From positions 1-7,210 of the IMG/VR virus record IMGVR_UViG_2778261667_000004: a stretch of 7,210 nucleotides of DNA; one strand, written 5' to 3'. Each line of letters starts with the position of its first letter. The stretch's first letter is position 1. Positions 1 to 7,210 of this stretch are shown here, one piece after another. Source of the DNA: a virus (Duplodnaviria; Heunggongvirae; Uroviricota; Caudoviricetes). The notes under the pieces were generated by a model. It did no database searches, was not told the origin of the DNA, and worked only from the letters and a program-made list of their open reading frames with translations. Both the position numbers and the translations under genes were made by a program.

Positions 1-567
1 TTCTTGCACCGTCTGATAGAGCGTCATCTCTTCAGCATTGTGCCGTATAAAATCTGCTTTCCCGCCTATTTTTCCATCAGCATGAACAGGCACCAACCAG
101 GGGTGCTTGAGGCGAACTTCAATCGGTGCTGCATGTTGATGGTGCCACTTACACAACGGGAGGACGTATTTATGGGCATCTTTAGCCGTTCTGCCAAATA
201 TGTGGTGGAGAGATACGACAGGGCTATACTTCCCGTGAAGATGGCAGGCAATACAGGGGAGTTTGCCTATAGCGTCCTGTATCCGGCGCTCTTCTGCTGT
301 GAGTGATCTCCCTTTTAATCCGCGTGACGTGCGCGTTTTTTTGGGGAGGGCTGACGTCGCTCTCTCTCTTCTGCGCTGTTCACTTTGCCTCGCTTTTTCA
401 AGTTTCTTTTGACGATATTCAGGCGATGCGGCTTTTTCCCTTGCGCGTTGCTGCTGGCGTTGAGCCTGCTGAAGACGTTTTGCCCTTTGCTCTTCCCGCC
501 ATTCCGGATCAGCCAGTTTTTGCATGGCTTTTTGTCTCTGTTTCTCCCAATAACTCTGTCTCTGCAT
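1..567 (-). CDS. Ref-like HNH endonuclease (P1 recombination enhancement function family), 3' end beyond window start; alternative start at 525
   Basis: Reverse-strand frame open from 567 to position 1 with no stop, so not in the ORF track. Translation: MQRQSYWEKQRQKAMQKLADPEWREEQRAKRLQQAQRQQQRAREK...GLKGRSLTAEERRIQDAIGKLPCIACHLHGKYSPVVSLHHIFGRTAKDAHKYVLPLCKWHHQHAAPIEVRLKHPWLVPVHADGKIGGKADF...TVQE. Basic, probably disordered N-terminus followed by a CxxC...HH...CxxHH zinc/HNH-type motif, matching my recollection of P1 Ref. Only weak SD-like AAGAGA upstream of ATG 567. Confidence 0.7.
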   Translation of the reverse strand, partial: MQRQSYWEKQRQKAMQKLADPEWREEQRAKRLQQAQRQQQRAREKAASPEYRQKKLEKARQSEQRRRERATSALPKKTRTSRGLKGRSLTAEERRIQDAIGKLPCIACHLHGKYSPVVSLHHIFGRTAKDAHKYVLPLCKWHHQHAAPIEVRLKHPWLVPVHADGKIGGKADFIRHNAEEMTLYQTVQE

Positions 568-685
568 GTTGGCTGTCTCTTACTTATCAGCGATTTTTTA
601 TAATTGATCATATTTGTTAGTTATTCAAAATTGATTTCTAACATAAAACATTAATATCATCACTGATAACTGTTTGGAGGACATG
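568..685. promoter_or_regulatory. Divergent AT-rich control region between Ref-like gene and rightward operon; inverted repeat TGTTAG(615-620)-N17-CTAACA(638-643); candidate -35 TTGATT (631-636)
   Basis: Non-coding AT-rich stretch between two divergently oriented starts. Inverted repeat and TTGATTT/TCTAACATA words are shared with 4767-4788. The -10 is ambiguous (TAATAT 652-657 at 15 bp spacing, or TATCAT 655-660 at 18 bp). Confidence 0.3.
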
Positions 686-838
686 ATGCTTATAGCTTTA
701 AGTGCGATCCACCAGCCATCTGTGAATGAGATCGGTCTGTTCTATGTGCTGTTTTTCGGGGCGTTGGCGCTACTTGAGCTTGGTATTGAGCTTTTTGCCG
801 TGCTGATGTTTTGCGTCACGATGCTGGGGAAATTTTGA
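686..838 (+). CDS. Small hydrophobic (membrane) protein, about 50 aa, first gene of rightward operon; not in ORF track
   Basis: GGAGG at 676-680, then ATGATG (683/686). Translation: MLIALSAIHQPSVNEIGLFYVLFFGALALLELGIELFAVLMFCVTMLGKF. Stop TGA 836-838 overlaps ATG 838 of the next gene (TGATG). Hydrophobic stretch long enough for 1-2 TM helices. Confidence 0.45.
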   Translation: MLIALSAIHQPSVNEIGLFYVLFFGALALLELGIELFAVLMFCVTMLGKF

Positions 839-1461
839 TGGTGAAACGTGTTTTGAAAATTTACATCGCGGGGCCGATGACTGGTTATCCAGAGTACAAC
901 CGCGCGGCGTTTAATGCGAAAGCGAGCGAGTTGATGGCTGAAGGGCATATCGTTCTGAATCCGGCGGTATTACCTGGTGGCCTTTGTCAGAGTGAATACA
1001 TGGATATTTGCCTGGCAATGGTGCGTTCTGCTGATGCTATCTATCTGCTTAAGGGCTGGGAATCGTCCTCAGGAGCACGAGCAGAACATGACCTGGCTGA
1101 AAAACTGAGGCTTACGGTAATTTATGAATCGCCATCTGACAGAGATTGCAGAATGGCAGCGCATATTTACCGTGAACTGGTCAATGCGTTGTGTGATGTT
1201 GCTATTGAATGTCACGGCACGGATCAGCTTCGCGCTCGCTTAAGCAATACCCTTTCCAGCTACCTGTCTTTAGCTGAAGGATACAACCTCCGGCAGCGGA
1301 GAATGGTCAAATTAATCACGCGTTTATCTCAATCCCTGGCAAATGCCGAACCAACTAATCCGCTACCTAATGACGCAATGAATTATCTGAAGTCATGCGG
1401 CGTTGTTTCTGAAGATGCAGTTCGTTTTGTGGAGTTTATGTCTCAGAGGATGTCGGCGTGA
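838..1461 (+). CDS. DUF4406-family protein (nucleoside 2-deoxyribosyltransferase-like fold) with about 100-aa C-terminal extension of unknown function
   Basis: N-terminal KIYIAGPMTGYPEYNRAAFNAKASELMAEGHIVLNPAVL...AIYLLKGWESSSGARAEHDLA...VIYES matches the DUF4406/NDT-like signature as I recall it. GGGGAA about 7 nt upstream of ATG 838. The track's TTG 811 start would overlap the upstream small ORF, so ATG 838 is preferred. Confidence 0.8.
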   Translation: MVKRVLKIYIAGPMTGYPEYNRAAFNAKASELMAEGHIVLNPAVLPGGLCQSEYMDICLAMVRSADAIYLLKGWESSSGARAEHDLAEKLRLTVIYESPSDRDCRMAAHIYRELVNALCDVAIECHGTDQLRARLSNTLSSYLSLAEGYNLRQRRMVKLITRLSQSLANAEPTNPLPNDAMNYLKSCGVVSEDAVRFVEFMSQRMSA

Positions 1462-1775
1462 GCTGGCGGGGATGGGGAAGGGCAGAAATCATGATACTCC
1501 GCCAGTGCGCCGGGACTATGACGGTCGAGAGTATCGGGAAGCTGATCGGTCGTACCGGTGATGCCGTCAGGACTAAAGCGCGGGAGCTGAGAATCAGCAT
1601 GATTCTGAAAGGTGACTTTCACCAGTCAGCCAAATACCGGCAGAGCGATATAGAGCTGGCGCGGCAGCTTCATCAGTGTGGCGTTCCCCGCCGTGAGATC
1701 GCAGAAAAACTCGAAATGCCCCTGGGCATGATTAATCAGTACGTTTATTTCGAAAGGAGAGTGCATGAAGTCTGA
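1458..1775 (+). CDS. GcrA-like / tandem helix-turn-helix DNA-binding protein
   Basis: GTG start in a GTGA overlap with the upstream stop; AGAGGA 8 nt upstream. MSW...IGKLIGRTGDAVRTKARELRIS resembles the GcrA N-terminal HTH; second HTH-like segment DIELARQLHQCGVPRREIAEKLEMPLGMINQY. Confidence 0.65.
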   Translation: MSWRGWGRAEIMILRQCAGTMTVESIGKLIGRTGDAVRTKARELRISMILKGDFHQSAKYRQSDIELARQLHQCGVPRREIAEKLEMPLGMINQYVYFERRVHEV

Positions 1776-2202
1776 AGGTTTAACGCCAGAGCAACTGGCG
1801 GCGGAGAATGCGGCATTGCGTGAAGTAGTTGAACGCATGATAAATCAATTTGCAATGAGCGGTATTTCTCCAGAAGAGAAGTCAATCAATCCCGCAGCGT
1901 CGCTCATGTTTGATGCTAAATCAGCATTGTCTATGCCTGCAACTGACGCTTTCCTGGCTGAAGTTCGTGCTGAGGCACGCAACGAGGGGATTAACTATAC
2001 CGCAAGCCGTCTTGCTGCTGCTTTTAACCACGGATTTATCAATAAGTCTTTACGTGAAGTTTTCGACGTTACGCGCATGATTCTGTCAGCAAAAGAAGAG
2101 TTGGCTAATGAACCGCACCCGATTGATGGCCTGTCCGGTGAATATGCGGAGAAATCCCTGGAAGAATGGGCAGAACAGATTCGCAAAGGAGGTGATAAGT
2201 GA
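1765..2202 (+). CDS. Ea22-like protein, short paralog carrying only the coiled-coil plus PATDAFLAEVRA module
   Basis: AGGAGA SD then ATG 1765. Contains LAAENAALREVVERM and SMPATDAFLAEVRAEARNEGI, the same modules as in 2618-3322 and 6665-7210. Confidence 0.75.
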   Translation: MKSEGLTPEQLAAENAALREVVERMINQFAMSGISPEEKSINPAASLMFDAKSALSMPATDAFLAEVRAEARNEGINYTASRLAAAFNHGFINKSLREVFDVTRMILSAKEELANEPHPIDGLSGEYAEKSLEEWAEQIRKGGDK

Positions 2203-2609
2203 AGAAGATGATTTTTGTGGCGGCATTGGTGGCCATTACCCAACAGGCACAGGCTTCAGCAGTTATTGTGGCATCTACCGCCGCGACAACGGCTGCTGTA
2301 GCTGCTGCGAACTCTGCGAATATCGCAAACCAACAGGCACAGCGTGCTGCCAATGCATCAGCCGGTGTTCAACCAATTACCATTAAGGCCAGTAAGCAAA
2401 ATCTGGGGTTCATAACGTGCGGCAAGCGTTCTTATGAAGCTGTAGGCTCTCTGGGATGTACGGTATATGGCGATAGTGAGAGTAGAGAAATTCCATGGAA
2501 AACGTGGCCCGGATACGTTCTCGGCTCGAAGCTCCCGGCCAGCTATGAAGTAAACGCCGTATCGTTTGATCACTATAACGGCGTGGCAACTGTCTATTTT
2601 GCATATTGA
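2199..2609 (+). CDS. Secreted/periplasmic protein of unknown function (signal peptide, Ala/Thr/Asn-rich linker, two-Cys C-terminal domain)
   Basis: AGGAGGT SD then GTG 2199 in a GTGA overlap. N-terminus MKKMIFVAALVAITQQAQA|SAV is a textbook Sec signal with AxA cleavage site. Low-complexity linker, then globular C-terminus with Cys-x13-Cys. No lipobox. Confidence 0.7.
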   Translation: MKKMIFVAALVAITQQAQASAVIVASTAATTAAVAAANSANIANQQAQRAANASAGVQPITIKASKQNLGFITCGKRSYEAVGSLGCTVYGDSESREIPWKTWPGYVLGSKLPASYEVNAVSFDHYNGVATVYFAY

Positions 2610-2617
2610 GGCTCCGC

Positions 2618-3322
2618 ATGAAATTCTCCAAATTTTCTGAGTTGGTGAATCGTATTTTGTCCAACAACCACAGCCATCATAGCGATATGGATGTGACGAT
2701 CGTTGTTCATTCGCCTGGCAGCATTGGTTCAACACCCTCAGTTGAGGTTCAGTCAATTCACGCTGGTTTTGATTGGGATTCCGGGAAAGTGCTGATTTTC
2801 CCAGCACAGCCACTGACCACGCTAACACCAGAACAGATTACTGATATTACTGATAGTGTGCGCAAAGGTCAGTCCTGGCACGCATATCAGGAATACAAGA
2901 AGCATAAAGAGCAGTTGGAAAAATTGTCGATTGAACTTGATGCCGCAAAACAGCGCGTTGCAGAGCTGGAGAGCAATCGAGCGGCGCTGGCGGCGGAGAA
3001 TGCAGGGCTAAAGGCGATATGTGATGACCGTCGCAGGCTCATCATGAATGGGGTGCAGATGGGTTATATCAAGGTGCCAACAGCGGAAACAGATCCAGAC
3101 CTTGAGACAATACGTATTGCTATATCACCACAAAAGCCCATTCCAGCCACCGATGCTTTCTTGGCTGAAGTGCGGGCGGAGGCGTTTAACGACCTTTGCG
3201 CGGCGTTTGTCATGGACGCGAGGGGAGTAGGACTGGATGATGACGAGCTAGTGACGCTTAAAGATGCGACAGGTGCGCTGCTGCATTGTGCAGAACAGCT
3301 TAGGGAAGGGGGCAGTCAGTGA
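2618..3322 (+). CDS. Ea22-like protein (Ead/Ea22 family), full-length paralog with distinct N-terminal domain
   Basis: GAGG SD then ATG 2618 (track TTG 2606 would overlap the upstream stop). Coiled-coil NRAALAAENAGLKAICDD and PIPATDAFLAEVRAEAFNDL shared with the other two Ea22-like genes; unique N-terminal domain (DVTIVVHSPGSIGSTPSVEVQSIHAGFDWDSGKVLIFP). Confidence 0.8.
   Translation: MKFSKFSELVNRILSNNHSHHSDMDVTIVVHSPGSIGSTPSVEVQSIHAGFDWDSGKVLIFPAQPLTTLTPEQITDITDSVRKGQSWHAYQEYKKHKEQLEKLSIELDAAKQRVAELESNRAALAAENAGLKAICDDRRRLIMNGVQMGYIKVPTAETDPDLETIRIAISPQKPIPATDAFLAEVRAEAFNDLCAAFVMDARGVGLDDDELVTLKDATGALLHCAEQLREGGSQ
2981..3002 (+). repeat. 22-bp direct repeat (GCGGCGCTGGCGGCGGAGAATG), identical copy at 6968-6989, 16-bp core also at 1797-1815
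   Basis: Exact string match read from the sequence; encodes the AALAAEN coiled-coil segment of the Ea22-like paralogs. Confidence 0.85.
3143..3180 (+). repeat. About 38-bp near-identical direct repeat (PATDAFLAEVRA-coding), partner at 7118-7156, more diverged copy at 1936-1977
   Basis: CCAGCCACCGATGCTTTCTTGGCTGAAGTGCGGGCGGA versus CCAGCCACCGATGCTTTTCTGGCTGAAGTACGGGCGCA; a handful of mismatches by eye. Confidence 0.8.
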
Positions 3323-3618
3323 ATATCGACACCACGATAACGATCGACACGGCTCTCAACACAGGTTTGGCCTTGCTCGGTTGGGTTTACATCATGTTCA
3401 GTGCAGTACGGTGGGTGAAATCTGTTTTTCTAAAGCAGTGGGATAAACTCCGCGAAAAATCACGCCGCCAACAGGCCGTAGATGAATTTTGCGATGCATT
3501 TTCTTTGGAATGCATGGAGCCAGGTAGCACCATCCGCATCGCAACGAAGGAGGACTTGATAATTATGATGTATCGACAGGAGAAGGCAAATGACAGAACA
3601 GACGATGACAAATCGTGA
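3319..3618 (+). CDS. Small single-pass membrane protein, unknown function
   Basis: GTG start inside the junction GGGGGCAGTCAGTGA (3308-3322), overlapping the upstream stop. One predicted TM segment (TALNTGLALLGWVYIMFSAV). Confidence 0.5.
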   Translation: MNIDTTITIDTALNTGLALLGWVYIMFSAVRWVKSVFLKQWDKLREKSRRQQAVDEFCDAFSLECMEPGSTIRIATKEDLIIMMYRQEKANDRTDDDKS

Positions 3619-3814
3619 ACTTGTTGATGCCGCGATTGAACTTGCTGGCGATTTTTATTCCATGATGGGTTACGAGCATCGACCTGGTTTTAAGTATTGG
3701 GAGTCACCGCATCCGCAAGAACGACAGGTGTTTGAAATGGCCTGCCGTGCTTTTGAGGTTATTCGCGGCTCTGATGTGATGGATGCCGTTGCCGACTTGG
3801 AGGATGAAGAGTGA
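3590..3814 (+). CDS. Small acidic protein, unknown function (74 aa)
   Basis: AGGAGAAGG SD immediately upstream of ATG 3590; 29-nt overlap with the upstream gene; acidic composition with DLEDEE tail. Confidence 0.55.
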   Translation: MTEQTMTNRELVDAAIELAGDFYSMMGYEHRPGFKYWESPHPQERQVFEMACRAFEVIRGSDVMDAVADLEDEE

Positions 3815-4041
3815 GCATCATTAAAGAAATGCCGGTAGAACGTGATGAATATGGCTGCTGGACACATCCTGAATATGAAAAATTCTGTGATGGTAGAGAA
3901 CTTATTTCAACGGAAGAGTTTGACACCTGGATGAAGGAAAAGAATCTTCAGTGGACTATTCGCAGTATGGATGAAGATGATTTTAATCTGGGCGCAGATG
4001 GTCCGGTTTGTATCTGGCTGCGGGAGAAGGTTGCCGCATGA
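3811..4041 (+). CDS. Small acidic protein, unknown function (76 aa)
   Basis: GTG 3811 in a GTGA overlap with the upstream stop; its stop overlaps the phosphatase ATG (ATGA at 4038-4041). Two Cys pairs (GCW...FCDG; GPVCIW). Confidence 0.55.
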
Positions 4042-4730
4042 CCCAGGCGCTGCATGAAGTGAATTTATATAGCCGTATTGATGGTTCAGGCTACAGAAAC
4101 ATATGGGTTGTTGGTGATTTGCACGGTTGCTACACCCTGCTTATGAATAAACTCCATCGTGTGGATTTTGACCCGACACAGGATTTACTGATATCGGTTG
4201 GCGACCTTATCGATCGCGGCACAGAAAATGTTGAATGCCTGGAGCTATTGCAGATGCCCTGGTTTCGGTCGGTTATGGGAAACCACGAGCGATTAATGAT
4301 CGATGCGTTAAGTCCCTCTGGCAACGTGAATAACTGGCTAATGAATGGCGGTCAGTGGTTCTTTATGCTGGATAGTGATAAGGAAGTTTTAGCCGGGGCG
4401 CTGGTGGAGCTGGTTAGACGACTGCCTTATATCATAGAGCTGAACACAGGGCAGGAGACTATTGTCATTGCTCATGCTGACTATCCGGATAGAGAGTATC
4501 AGTTTGGCAAGGATGTGTCGCTTTTCAATGTCATCTGGTCGCGAGACCGTGTTAGTGACTCGATAGATGGCATCGGTGAAGAAATCACAGGCGCAGATCG
4601 CTTTATCTTTGGACACACACCGGTACGAAGACCAAAAGCATTCTGGAATCAGCACTACATAGACACAGGCGCGGTTTTTTGCGGAAATCTGACGCTAATA
4701 CAGGTGAAGGGAGGGCAGCTTAAAGTCTGA
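4038..4730 (+). CDS. PPP-family Ser/Thr protein phosphatase, PrpA/PrpB / lambda-phosphatase (ApaH-related) type
   Basis: Canonical metallophosphoesterase motifs in order: GDLHGC (GDxHG), GDLIDRG (GDxxDRG), GNHE, plus later His residues. Length and layout resemble E. coli PrpA as I recall it. GGAGAAGG SD before ATG 4038; track TTG 4008 rejected. Confidence 0.92.
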
Positions 4731-4756
4731 TCAAACCATTTATGCACTCAAAAATT

Positions 4757-4795
4757 CGTTAGAACATTGATTTTAGTTTTCTAACATATTATTTT
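4757..4795 (+). promoter_or_regulatory. Candidate sigma70 promoter (TTGATT 4767-4772, N17, TATTTT 4790-4795) overlapped by inverted repeat GTTAGAA(4758-4764)-N14-TTCTAAC(4779-4785)
   Basis: 98-bp AT-rich intergenic gap after the phosphatase stop. Hexamers match consensus 4/6 and 4/6 at 17-bp spacing. Perfect 7-bp inverted repeat spans the -35 and spacer. Confidence 0.35.
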
Positions 4796-4828
4796 ACCGA
4801 TCGGAACAAAACAGAGTCGGTATGCATT

Positions 4829-5824
4829 ATGAGTGCAATAATCACCCCATATGTCGTAAATGAAACTGGTGTGGCTGTCTTTCCTGTAGATAAGCCCACC
4901 AGCAATTACATCGGCGCAGGACGCCGTTTCATTATCTCTCCACTTCCGCGTGAACAGGCGGAAAACACGCCAGATGGCGTAGTGGATCTGAATTATTCGC
5001 TGGTTGCCAACCAGTCTCTGAAACCATTTTTTCAAAGCGAGCGCGTATTTAACGCATTAGGCGGTGAAGATTCGCTTGTTCATTGGGTAAGTTCCAATAT
5101 CCACGATTGCCAGGCGCACGATAAGCGCGATTGCAGCCACCAGCTAACCACCCATTTCTATAACGGTTCTGCCGTTCGTCTGTGCTGGAAGCATGATGCG
5201 GAATACATGATGAAGGGATACGACAAGCTGGAAGACCAACTGTCACTGAATCGCGCCAACTGGATTATGAACTGGGCTGCCAGCGAGTTAAAACTTCCGC
5301 CAGATCGCGATCTGAGCATGGTTGAACTCACCTTTTGGGCCATTCGCCGGAATCTTAAAGACGAACTGCCTGATGAAGCTGGTCGCATTGCATTTTGTCA
5401 GCCAAAAACTGAAATCCCTACCGGCACCCTGAAAGAGTCGGATATTACCTGGGAGCATAGTACCCGCGAGCTGGTGGATATTTCCGCAGAGCAGATCGTC
5501 AATCTGTCCGTCGATGAAGATTCTGGCCTCCTATATATGCGCCGTCCAAAAACCTTACTCGGAAAAAGCCAGGCTTATCTCCGGTTTGTGGTGTCTCGCC
5601 CATGTGTAGGCTGCGGCGGCAAGGTTAATCACCCGTTCATGTACCGTGCCCGCTCATTAAACGAACACGACCGCTGGGCTGTTCCTCTTTGCGATGACTG
5701 CGCCAGAAGCGCAGAAAACGATGTCCGGGCATGGGAAAAAGCACATGGAATACGCCTTTACGTAGCAGCTAACCAGCTTTTCGACTTCGCCATCGAGCGC
5801 GGAGTGATCACGTTCAATAACTGA
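4829..5824 (+). CDS. DUF968-like prophage protein with C-terminal Cys-rich (CxxC...NEH...CxxC) Ref/HNH-like zinc motif
   Basis: 331-aa ORF after the promoter-like region. C-terminus RPCVGCGGKVNHPFMYRARSLNEHDRWAVPLCDDCARS parallels the PCIAC...HH...PLC motif of the Ref-like gene. Overall resemblance to enterobacterial prophage DUF968 proteins is from memory. Weak SD. Confidence 0.7.
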   Translation: MSAIITPYVVNETGVAVFPVDKPTSNYIGAGRRFIISPLPREQAENTPDGVVDLNYSLVANQSLKPFFQSERVFNALGGEDSLVHWVSSNIHDCQAHDKRDCSHQLTTHFYNGSAVRLCWKHDAEYMMKGYDKLEDQLSLNRANWIMNWAASELKLPPDRDLSMVELTFWAIRRNLKDELPDEAGRIAFCQPKTEIPTGTLKESDITWEHSTRELVDISAEQIVNLSVDEDSGLLYMRRPKTLLGKSQAYLRFVVSRPCVGCGGKVNHPFMYRARSLNEHDRWAVPLCDDCARSAENDVRAWEKAHGIRLYVAANQLFDFAIERGVITFNN

Positions 5825-5840
5825 TGGAGTGGATCAAAAA

Positions 5841-6419
5841 ATGAAAGAACGCGGGATGATTTTTAACGATGAAATGGTCCGGGCAATTCTTGGCGGGAAT
5901 AAAACACAGACTCGCAGGATTGTTGAAGAAAAATTCTATGGACGGGCAGTGGCCGCAGAGTTGCTTGCCAAGCATTGTCCATATGGTCAACCGGGCGATC
6001 GTATTTGGGTTCGCGAAACCTACCGGGTACATGGCAAAGCGACGGACGTCGCAACGCTGGTTTATCGCGCAAGCGTGCGTAACTCCTGGACAGAACAAAC
6101 GCACCGGGTTCCGGTCGAGGTTTGTAATAAACCAGTATCAGAAAAGTGGACGCCATCAATTCACATGCCGCGCTGGGCATCGCGCATTTTGCTGGAAATT
6201 ACCGACGTGCGTGTGGAACGGCTGCATGACATGAGCGAGGCAGATGCTAAAGCAGAAGGCGCAACTCCGGCGACGTACAAGATTACGCCACCTGAAGCTG
6301 TTTATCGCGTTGGTTTTGGTGATATCTGGCGCAGTATTTACGGGCAGGATAACTGGCTATCTAACCCGTTGGTATGGGTAATAGAGTTTAAGCGTATTCA
6401 GGGGGCAACCAGTGAGTGA
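5841..6419 (+). CDS. ASCH-domain (PUA-like fold) protein
   Basis: MIFNDEMVRAILGGNKTQTRR matches the ASCH signature (compare E. coli YqfB DDILAGRKTITIR), followed by GDRIWVRETYRV and C-terminal VWVIEFKRI (YqfB ends FYVIEFK). Start ambiguous: GTG 5829, ATG 5841 or ATG 5856. Confidence 0.75.
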   Translation: MKERGMIFNDEMVRAILGGNKTQTRRIVEEKFYGRAVAAELLAKHCPYGQPGDRIWVRETYRVHGKATDVATLVYRASVRNSWTEQTHRVPVEVCNKPVSEKWTPSIHMPRWASRILLEITDVRVERLHDMSEADAKAEGATPATYKITPPEAVYRVGFGDIWRSIYGQDNWLSNPLVWVIEFKRIQGATSE

Positions 6420-6678
6420 GTCAAAATGCCAAATTAATGGCAACAAGATAGAACCGTGCGCGGCGTTGACGCAATCCCTGGAGCATGACGCTGAATACAC
6501 GACGCGAAAAGGTCTGCTGAAATACAAAATCTATAACCATGCATTAATTCATTCACAAGACCTGATCATGCTGCGGTCTGGTGAATTTTCTAAATCACCG
6601 ATTCGAGTTTCATTTTGCCCGTTCTGTGGTGAAAGTCTGAAAACGTGGGAAGCGGAGGCAACCAGTGAGCAAAATTAA
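6412..6678 (+). CDS. Small Cys-containing protein (possible zinc ribbon), unknown function
   Basis: GTG 6412 inside junction GGGGGCAACCAGTGAGTGA, overlapping the ASCH stop. Cys-x9-Cys near N-terminus and CPFC near C-terminus. Confidence 0.5.
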   Translation: MSESKCQINGNKIEPCAALTQSLEHDAEYTTRKGLLKYKIYNHALIHSQDLIMLRSGEFSKSPIRVSFCPFCGESLKTWEAEATSEQN

Positions 6679-7210
6679 CTATCAAGAACTGCGCGAGGCG
6701 GCGGAACAGGCAACGCAAGATGAATGGGTAGCATATATTTTGCCGGGTCATAACGGCATTTATCCTGCGCGCACGTCTGAGGGTAGGCATTGCGGATACT
6801 TTATTGACTGGCCTGGCATTGATGGACAAAGGAATGCTGGTGCTAATGCCCGTTATATCGCGGCTATCCCACCAAAAGTTGCGCTGGCACTCCTGGGCGA
6901 AATTAAGCGCTTGGAAGACACAAATATTGATGCTATGTGCCGAATTGCAGAACTGGAGGCCTGTCGCGCGGCGCTGGCGGCGGAGAATGAGCTGGCTCGT
7001 AAAGCAGTTCAGGCATTCTGCGATGTTGTTGGCGACAACACCGAGGTTATCGCTGAGGAGATTGGGAGAGATGGTGTTCTGGCTATTTTGGAGGCCATGA
7101 AGGCAACAGGAAATATGCCAGCCACCGATGCTTTTCTGGCTGAAGTACGGGCGCAGGGGGTGGATGCTGCTATAGAAGCTGCAAAAAATCTGGTGGTCCA
7201 AGAATATGAG
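6665..7210 (+). CDS. Ea22-like protein (Ead/Ea22 family), N-terminal part; continues beyond window end
   Basis: Open frame from GTG 6665 to the window end with no stop (absent from ORF track). GGAGG 8 nt upstream. Translation VSKINYQELREAAEQATQDEWVAYILPGHNGIYPARTSEGRHCGYFIDWPG...ACRAALAAENELARKAVQAFCD...NMPATDAFLAEVRAQGVDAAIEAAKN is typical of the family as I recall it. Confidence 0.8.
   Translation, partial: MSKINYQELREAAEQATQDEWVAYILPGHNGIYPARTSEGRHCGYFIDWPGIDGQRNAGANARYIAAIPPKVALALLGEIKRLEDTNIDAMCRIAELEACRAALAAENELARKAVQAFCDVVGDNTEVIAEEIGRDGVLAILEAMKATGNMPATDAFLAEVRAQGVDAAIEAAKNLVVQEYE
6968..6989 (+). repeat. 22-bp direct repeat, partner of 2981-3002
   Basis: Exact string match read from the sequence. 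Confidence 0.85.
7118..7156 (+). repeat. Near-identical direct repeat, partner of 3143-3180
   Basis: See partner entry. Confidence 0.8.

Follow-up and report, generated by a model that had tools for sequence, protein, structure and literature searches.

We analysed a 7,210-nucleotide (nt) stretch of viral DNA (IMG/VR record IMGVR_UViG_2778261667_000004, positions 1 to 7,210; hereafter the window), which is a piece of a D6-like phage-plasmid of the P1 family, with a focus on positions 4757-6678, where a putative control site precedes genes for a 331-amino-acid (aa) DUF968 protein, an ASCH protein and an 88-aa four-cysteine protein. This region is probably the distal part of a D6-like early accessory operon, in which an internal operator-like site is followed by independently acquired cargo genes. 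As a plausible mechanism, the gap upstream of the DUF968 gene would hold an internal control site, a bivalent copy of TGTTAGAAAACTAAWWT that we infer to be the operator of a D6-type repressor, and, as follows from this immunity-repressor reading, the genes behind it would be repressed in the lysogen and turned on soon after induction or infection. Among their predicted products, the DUF968 protein, of the type of P1 PdcB, probably binds DNA instead of cutting it in the canonical manner, the ASCH protein, of the type of P1 PmgT, probably deacylates N4-acylated cytosine nucleosides or RNA, as its residues and fold suggest, and the small four-cysteine protein, a likely zinc ribbon, appears to travel mostly with ead/Ea22 genes.

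The segment 4731-6700 is ~95% identical to E. coli plasmids of 90-97 kb (sequence match to complete genomes). These plasmids encode ref, icd, ash, a DUF4406 gene, ead/Ea22 genes and a NinI-like phosphatase and, further downstream, hot, humD, phd-doc, dut and a cre-like recombinase. Because this gene set is that of phage D6, a P1 relative living as a plasmid prophage, we identify the element as D6-like. The plus-strand gene row begins at 811 and continues past the window end at 7210, and the 98-nt gap at 4731-4828 is the sole sizeable intergenic gap between these positions, as the original prediction, made from the nucleotide sequence, had stated. The three tightly packed open reading frames (ORFs) that it described behind the gap are present as described (Table 1), with 16 nt between the DUF968 stop codon and the ASCH ATG and an 8-nt overlap between the ASCH and 88-aa genes. 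They do not, however, form the self-contained block that had been proposed: the start of an ead/Ea22-like gene, at 6665, falls within the 88-aa gene, with an overlap of 14 nt, and the block is therefore not closed on its 3' side; a scan of the window found no terminator-like site after 6678.

The gap had been predicted to hold a promoter-like site overlapped by a perfect 7-bp inverted repeat, and of the two parts of this claim it is the repeat that stands. GTTAGAA (4758-4764) and TTCTAAC (4779-4785) flank a 14-nt spacer, and positions 4770-4786 hold, on the minus strand, the strong copy of a recurrent motif, TGTTAGAAAACTAAAAT. A single occurrence would not be significant, an equal repeat arising by chance in 20% of spacer shuffles and in 19 of the 146 real 98-nt tiles of the window (13%); we take the repeat as real because it recurs. 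The exact arrangement GTTAGAA-N14-TTCTAAC occurs a second time between ref and the first operon gene in several D6-like loci, and nearly every D6-like locus with enough upstream sequence carries a relaxed form of the palindrome exactly twice, at the operon head and upstream of the DUF968 gene, compared with three occurrences in 2.9 Mb of unrelated loci. Within the window, the exact 9-mer TGTTAGAAA has just two copies, at 635-643 and 4778-4786 of the minus strand. The operon-head copy (616-643, with GTTAG...CTAAC at 616-642) contains an identical TTGATT -35-like hexamer within the operator and overlaps the only plus-strand promoter-like site that the scan calls in the window (631-660).

The same motif recurs throughout phage D6 (loci L267, L268 and L003), where the 8-mer core TGTTAGAA has 12 exact copies in the full genome versus 3.5 expected; 11 of these 12 are intergenic in a genome of which 10.2% is non-coding (P=1.4e-10). 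Alignment of the D6 sites yields an asymmetric motif of ~17 bp, TGTTAGAAAACTAAWWT. One site precedes the c1 repressor homologue by 28 nt, and others lie upstream of ref, icd-ant, hrdC-dmt and orf98. P1 carries 22 dispersed, asymmetric 17-bp C1 operators (PMC8546580), and the D6 motif resembles them in being ~17 bp long, asymmetric and AT-rich, in ending with AAWWT, in being scattered intergenically as both single and inverted (bivalent) copies, and in its placement before the c1 homologue, ref, icd-ant and hrdC-dmt. The layout of a C1-type regulon, that is, dispersed asymmetric intergenic sites including one upstream of the repressor gene, is thus found for the D6 motif. In contrast, the motif sequences differ (TGTTAGAAAACTAATTT in D6 versus ATTGCTCTAATAAATTT in P1); the window has no match to the P1 C1 operator consensus with up to 3 mismatches allowed, and D6 shows no enrichment of it at up to 4. 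Because the layout of the D6 motif is that of the P1 C1 operators, the site in the gap is most likely a candidate operator of a D6-type immunity repressor, and the TGTTAGAAAACTAAWWT motif set as a whole looks like the immunity-repressor regulon of D6-like phage-plasmids.

Three observations count against this operator assignment. The promoter scan called no sigma-70-like site at 9 or more of 12 matches in the 98-nt gap, and the best promoter by eye (TTGATT at 4767-4772, a 17-nt spacer and TATTTT at 4790-4795) reaches 8/12, which leaves the promoter half of the earlier claim below the scan threshold. The strong motif copy upstream of the DUF968 gene is oriented away from that gene. Lastly, the motif could be a promoter element instead of a repressor operator, because a -10-like TAAAAT falls inside it. 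A different alternative is that the repeat is an intrinsic terminator or a chance palindrome and that the genes are read through from the operon-head promoter. The frequency of equal repeats among the shuffles, the U-rich stretch after the hairpin with its folding z-score of -2.2 and the empty promoter scan of the gap are all compatible with this explanation, whereas the recurrence of the core at the operon head and at the largely intergenic D6 sites, the rarity of the relaxed palindrome in unrelated loci and the AU-rich stem with a 14-nt loop, which would make a poor terminator, argue against it, and we regard it as very unlikely. A search of the gap against Rfam gave no match.

If the genes behind the operator-like site formed a conserved three-gene module, as had been suggested, they should be inherited together. 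We compared 37 D6-like loci, of which 36 include the upstream flank; in all 36 a NinI/Ppp-like phosphatase gene precedes the DUF968 gene. The slot after the DUF968 gene is variable, being occupied by an ASCH gene in 20 loci, by the 88-aa gene alone in 11 and by neither in 6. The ASCH genes in this slot belong to at least five allelic classes with 45-99% identity to the window protein (tblastn) and lengths of 192-242 aa (loci L008-L039). Alleles 98-99% identical to that of the window are accompanied by the 88-aa gene in six loci, two of which have a PAPS-reductase cassette between the two genes, and alleles of 81-84% identity are accompanied by it in two loci; alleles of 56-58% identity occur without the 88-aa gene in seven loci, and alleles of 45-48% identity in five, one of which (L037) has the 88-aa gene ~0.5 kb downstream. 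In phage D6 itself the 88-aa gene comes immediately after the DUF968 gene and an ASCH gene is missing, and in the P1-like JL22 the ASCH and 88-aa genes follow pap, 6.5 kb from pdcB.

Beyond the D6-like lineage, the co-occurrence in other genomes on which the prediction of a module depended is not seen. Among DUF968 loci outside this lineage, none of 71 viral and none of 76 genomic loci (0/147) has an adjacent ASCH gene, only the P1-like ones having such a gene, several kb away. Conversely, among 80 diverse viral loci of the ASCH family, DUF968 is adjacent in two, both of them D6-like. Across 5,426 complete E. coli genomes, the DUF968 gene is present at full length in 99 records, the window's ASCH allele in 82 and the 88-aa gene in 369, and the contiguous trio is found in only 14. 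The usual neighbours of YdfU-type DUF968 genes are RusA and Q, and those of ASCH-family genes are RecT, YqaJ, Dam, TraR/DksA, excisionase and integrase; the two families occupy opposite arms of the early region in lambdoid phages, and D6-like elements join them in a mosaic operon. Many ASCH-family genes (loci L040-L119) lie 1-3 kb from a contig end and three to four genes upstream of the integrase, a location that is the recombination-to-int arm of temperate phages. The three genes are independently shuffled accessory genes, each with its own distribution, and not a conserved module or dedicated system.

Against the shuffling of cargo genes stands the observation that an ASCH gene of some allele follows the DUF968 gene at a distance of ~20 nt in 20/37 D6-like loci. 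One explanation would be a pair specific to the D6 lineage, in which a nuclease-dead PdcB-type protein and an ASCH enzyme cooperate, for example through DNA or RNA targeting by one and base deacylation by the other, with the turnover of ASCH alleles reflecting conflict with hosts or rival phages. Such a partnership stays conceivable because of this frequent adjacency and because the catalytic motifs are intact in every allele, all slot ASCH alleles keeping GxKTQTRR and DAxxEG; that alleles of such different identity share one slot, behind a control site and a DUF968 5' region that are almost invariant across loci, also fits it. However, 17 of the 37 D6-like loci lack an ASCH gene in this slot, P1-like plasmids carry the same ASCH alleles at a distance from pdcB, and conserved flanks, for instance the ead/Ea22 repeats, offer a simpler, recombinational explanation. 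We consider a functional pair unlikely and retain independently acquired cargo as the preferred reading of the region.

For the ASCH protein, the ORF at 5829-6419 comprises 196 aa from a GTG codon and 192 aa from the ATG at 5841. The latter start is supported by the family alignment and RefSeq, and is favoured because GGAG lies 10 nt upstream and all relatives begin with MKER. The ASCH assignment holds at the level of the fold and falls short at that of the Pfam profile: ASCH (PF04266) is matched below threshold (E=0.046, 14.9 bits versus the 21.2-bit cut-off), as in most relatives, only 6/54 of which reach E<=0.01, and searches of the PDB sequences with the single sequence and with a profile gave no match. 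The family itself is very large, with 42,903 representatives at 50% identity matching at E<=0.001, most of them phage-borne; the alignment drew its diversity from the representative library, and 54 diverse relatives were used for modelling. In the resulting AlphaFold2 model (predicted local distance difference test score, pLDDT, 88.7), the top Foldseek matches in the PDB are YqfB (9kyf), 3s9x, 2z0t and 1t62, PH0355 and EF3133 among them, with a probability of 1.00 and a TM score of 0.73 normalised to YqfB. Nine of the top 10 PDB matches are ASCH, DUF984 or related PUA-like proteins, and the tenth, EOLA1, is an ASCH protein according to the literature. On this modelled structure, the PUA-like beta-barrel fold of ASCH proteins is confirmed.

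The model and alignment also suggest that the protein is not the modified-base reader that had been proposed. In the motif G-x-K-T-Q-T-R-R, residues K25, T26, T28, R29 and R30 (196-aa numbering) are invariant in the 54 relatives, and K25, T28 and R30 are invariant in all 16 D6-slot alleles. With numbering from the ATG at 5841, the Lys, Thr and Arg fall at 21, 24 and 26, just as in YqfB, whose essential residues are K21, T24 and R26, with E74 as the acid (PMC6972931); this corresponds to the YqfB-type "GKTR" subgroup of the ASCH octapeptide (bioRxiv 10.64898/2026.02.27.708502). The window protein thus resembles E. coli YqfB, an N4-acetylcytidine amidohydrolase, in its ASCH beta-barrel and in the G-x-K-x-x-T-x-R octapeptide, and may share with it the acidic Glu; it differs in being twice the size, with a large inserted segment and additional helices at the C terminus. 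P1 PmgT is a member of the window protein's family (hhalign E=2.7e-52). Because the YqfB-type Lys, Thr and Arg are retained, together with a candidate for the catalytic Glu, the protein looks like an N4-acylcytosine amidohydrolase-type enzyme and not a passive reader. The weak point of this assignment is the acid: E143, conserved in at least 90% of the relatives, is aligned to YqfB E74 at an hhalign probability of only 22% (E=9.6e-4).

The DUF968 protein is assigned by sequence. The Pfam search proposed as a check of this assignment matches DUF968 (PF06147) over residues 161-325 (E=4.6e-45, 154.2 bits versus a 27.8-bit cut-off), PHROG 96 ("HNH endonuclease") matches the protein end to end, and the identity is 96% to D6 orf98, which is itself annotated as 'similar to P1 pdcB', 38% to P1 PdcB over the full length and 24-31% to YdfU-type proteins of lambdoid prophages. 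DUF968 and DUF1364/YbcO constitute group 7 of the His-Me finger superfamily (PMC5714182). The CxxC...NEH...CxxC motif noticed at the outset is present as C259xxC262...N278-E279-H280...C288xxC291. In the AlphaFold2 model (mean pLDDT 77, high in residues 61-190 and 251-320), residues 269-297 form a beta-hairpin and a helix, and the predicted C-terminal part has a beta-beta-alpha-metal, Ref-like fold with a zinc knuckle. Compared by sequence with the PDB, this protein returned chance or marginal matches only.

The Ref/HNH-like character that had been proposed for this protein is therefore borne out by the modelled fold, and not by the catalytic residues. The 60 aligned relatives share the signature C..C..DD-PHH-IGHG.GG.GTKAHD..PLCR..H..LH, in which the HH dyad is present in 55-57/60 and both helix histidines in 55/60. 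In the window protein and in D6 orf98, a 5-residue deletion takes out the HH dyad, and the helix histidines are replaced (H292 by Ala, H296 by Glu). The YdfU-type profile aligns this dyad to H246-H247 of OgeuIscB, in which H247 is the catalytic histidine, equivalent to Cas9 H840 (PMC9640706). P1 PdcB retains one His and a P1-like variant none; the window protein, in lacking the HH dyad and the two helix histidines, is like P1 PdcB and unlike the YdfU-type majority. What is kept are the zinc ligands C259, C262, C288 and C291, together with H280-D281. Because the structural zinc site stays while the catalytic dyad is lost, the protein is more likely a DNA-binding derivative than a canonical nuclease. 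Points on the other side are that H268, which directly precedes the deletion, might take over as general base and leave residual or altered nuclease activity, that the alignment used for the model consists of YdfU-type relatives, which bear the HH dyad that the query does not have, and that model confidence is low outside residues 61-190 and 251-320.

In its N-terminal part, the DUF968 protein carries a second Cys/His cluster (residues 90-130), in which C94-Q95 and C119-W120 are invariant and relatives show LCWHxDN. In the model this cluster sits on a beta-hairpin and a helix, and it is possibly a second treble-clef or a degenerate His-Me unit. Structure comparison recognised no solved relative of the N-terminal 250 residues. 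The protein is not a member of the P1 Ref family, as judged by the absence of an NCBIfam match and by a BLASTP comparison with D6-type Ref (E=0.18). P1 Ref, a RecA-dependent HNH nuclease (PDB 3plw), keeps SLHH...CKWHH, which the DUF968 protein does not. The window's own Ref, transcribed divergently from the operon, has SLHH...PLCKWHH and is 83% identical to the Ref of plasmid NZ_JBTZPF010000006. The gene positions differ as well: the DUF968 gene follows the phosphatase gene here, P1 pdcB follows phd-doc-pdcA, and YdfU genes lie in the lambdoid nin/Q region. P1 pdcB and pmgT are both non-essential for lytic growth and are listed as function unknown.

These results bear directly on the proposal of a modification-sensing defence or anti-defence module, in which the ASCH protein would recognise a modified base and guide the HNH-like DUF968 protein to cleave modified DNA or RNA. 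Both folds are present side by side in the window, an ASCH gene follows DUF968 in more than half of the D6-like loci, and fusions of PUA-superfamily readers with HNH domains are known as modification-dependent nucleases (PMC7897488). Unlike the EVE-HNH enzyme VcaM4I, McrA and TagI, however, the genes in the window are separate and not co-inherited, the nuclease site is degenerate, the ASCH protein has hydrolase residues, and the genes are phage cargo and not part of a host defence island. The deletion of the catalytic dyad with the replacement of two further conserved histidines, the retained hydrolase set, the restriction of the adjacent pair to D6-like elements, the lack of an ASCH gene in D6 itself and the separate, non-essential homologues in P1 all speak against such a nuclease. 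None of the three proteins matches a PADLOC defence model at E<=0.1, and the three genes have no NCBIfam match. We consider the reader-nuclease idea highly improbable; the region does not hold up as a candidate defence system, and effort on that idea can be saved.

A related and more specific proposal is that phages use the PmgT-family ASCH protein to erase N4-acylated cytosine, for example N4-acetylcytidine (ac4C) on host tRNA or in the nucleotide pool, the protein being made early after derepression and, in D6-like elements, perhaps acting beside a nuclease-dead, PdcB-type DNA binder, with allele turnover as a trace of host-phage conflict. We consider this unlikely. ASCH proteins are reported of late to remove ac4C from tRNA, and the family is huge in temperate phages, which makes a phage-encoded ac4C remover a testable lead.

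The third gene encodes the small Cys protein of the original prediction, which is 88 aa long and has four invariant cysteines. It matches phrog_4030, a family with no assigned function (E=2.5e-43), and has homologues in P7 (upf87.4), D6 (orf99), JL22 (gp100) and Rac-SA53 (rac21), as well as distant ones in Salmonella and Enterobacter phages. In the alignment, C6, C16, C69 and C72 are invariant down to 36% identity, and because of these four cysteines the protein is probably a small zinc ribbon. The gene adjoins ead/Eae in lambdoid prophages, and most of its copies in the complete E. coli genomes are chromosomal.

Although the three genes add new members to families already described, in an element of a known kind, the comparison would give two P1 genes a clearer identity. 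Of P1 pdcB and pmgT, whose functions have long been given as unknown or "putative morphogenetic", the former is now predicted to encode a Ref-like His-Me protein without catalytic histidines and the latter a YqfB-like ASCH enzyme. The recurrent TGTTAGAA motif yields a candidate map of the immunity regulon for D6-like phage-plasmids, elements often found in clinical E. coli and Salmonella.

Table 1 Features of the window, with the evidence for each assignment
Feature	Position	Strand	Evidence or remark
Ref recombination-enhancement nuclease	1-564	-	Sequence identity; runs off the window start
Operon-head operator copy and promoter-like site	616-660	+	Motif, promoter scan
NinI/Ppp-like Ser/Thr phosphatase	4008-4730	+	Upstream neighbour of the DUF968 gene
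Operator-like bivalent site	4758-4786		Inverted repeat and recurrent motif
Weak promoter-like site	4767-4795	+	Read from sequence; operator overlaps
PdcB-like DUF968 protein, 331 aa	4829-5824	+	Pfam, homology, model
PmgT-like ASCH-fold protein, 192 aa (196 aa from GTG 5829)	5841-6419	+	Model, Foldseek, hhalign
Upf87.4-like 88-aa four-Cys protein	6412-6678	+	phrog_4030
ead/Ea22-like gene	6665-7210	+	phrog_368; leaves the window

Several further observations concern relatives of these genes. The PAPS-reductase cassette lies exactly between the ASCH and 88-aa genes in L002 (7679-8983) and L036 (~9580-10890) and comprises a gene of the PAPS-reductase family (PF01507, E=2.8e-9) together with two small ORFs. 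A replacement of the ASCH gene in plasmid p98192 was considered and rejected; the ASCH gene is kept there, and the PAPS-reductase cassette is inserted after it. In the Vibrio anguillarum phages Pel and pVa-8, a DUF968 homologue adjoins a nucleoside 2-deoxyribosyltransferase gene. In Salmonella virus VSiA (L269, 2498-3986), a virulent member of the Guernseyvirinae, a homologue of the 88-aa gene lies two genes upstream of a gene for DUF3850, which we take to be a PUA-clan, ASCH-like domain, and four genes upstream of an HNH endonuclease gene; this arrangement is probably coincidental.

Elsewhere in the operon, the first large gene (811-1461) encodes a DUF4406 protein. The 136-aa ORF at 2199-2609 opens with MKKMIFVAALVAITQQAQA, which resembles a signal peptide, and its product may be a secreted or envelope protein within the early operon. 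The three ead/Ea22-like paralogues (1765-2202, 2606-3322 and 6665-7210) have a near-identical PATDAFLAEVRA stretch in common, and these repeats may help mosaic rearrangement and shuffling among relatives.

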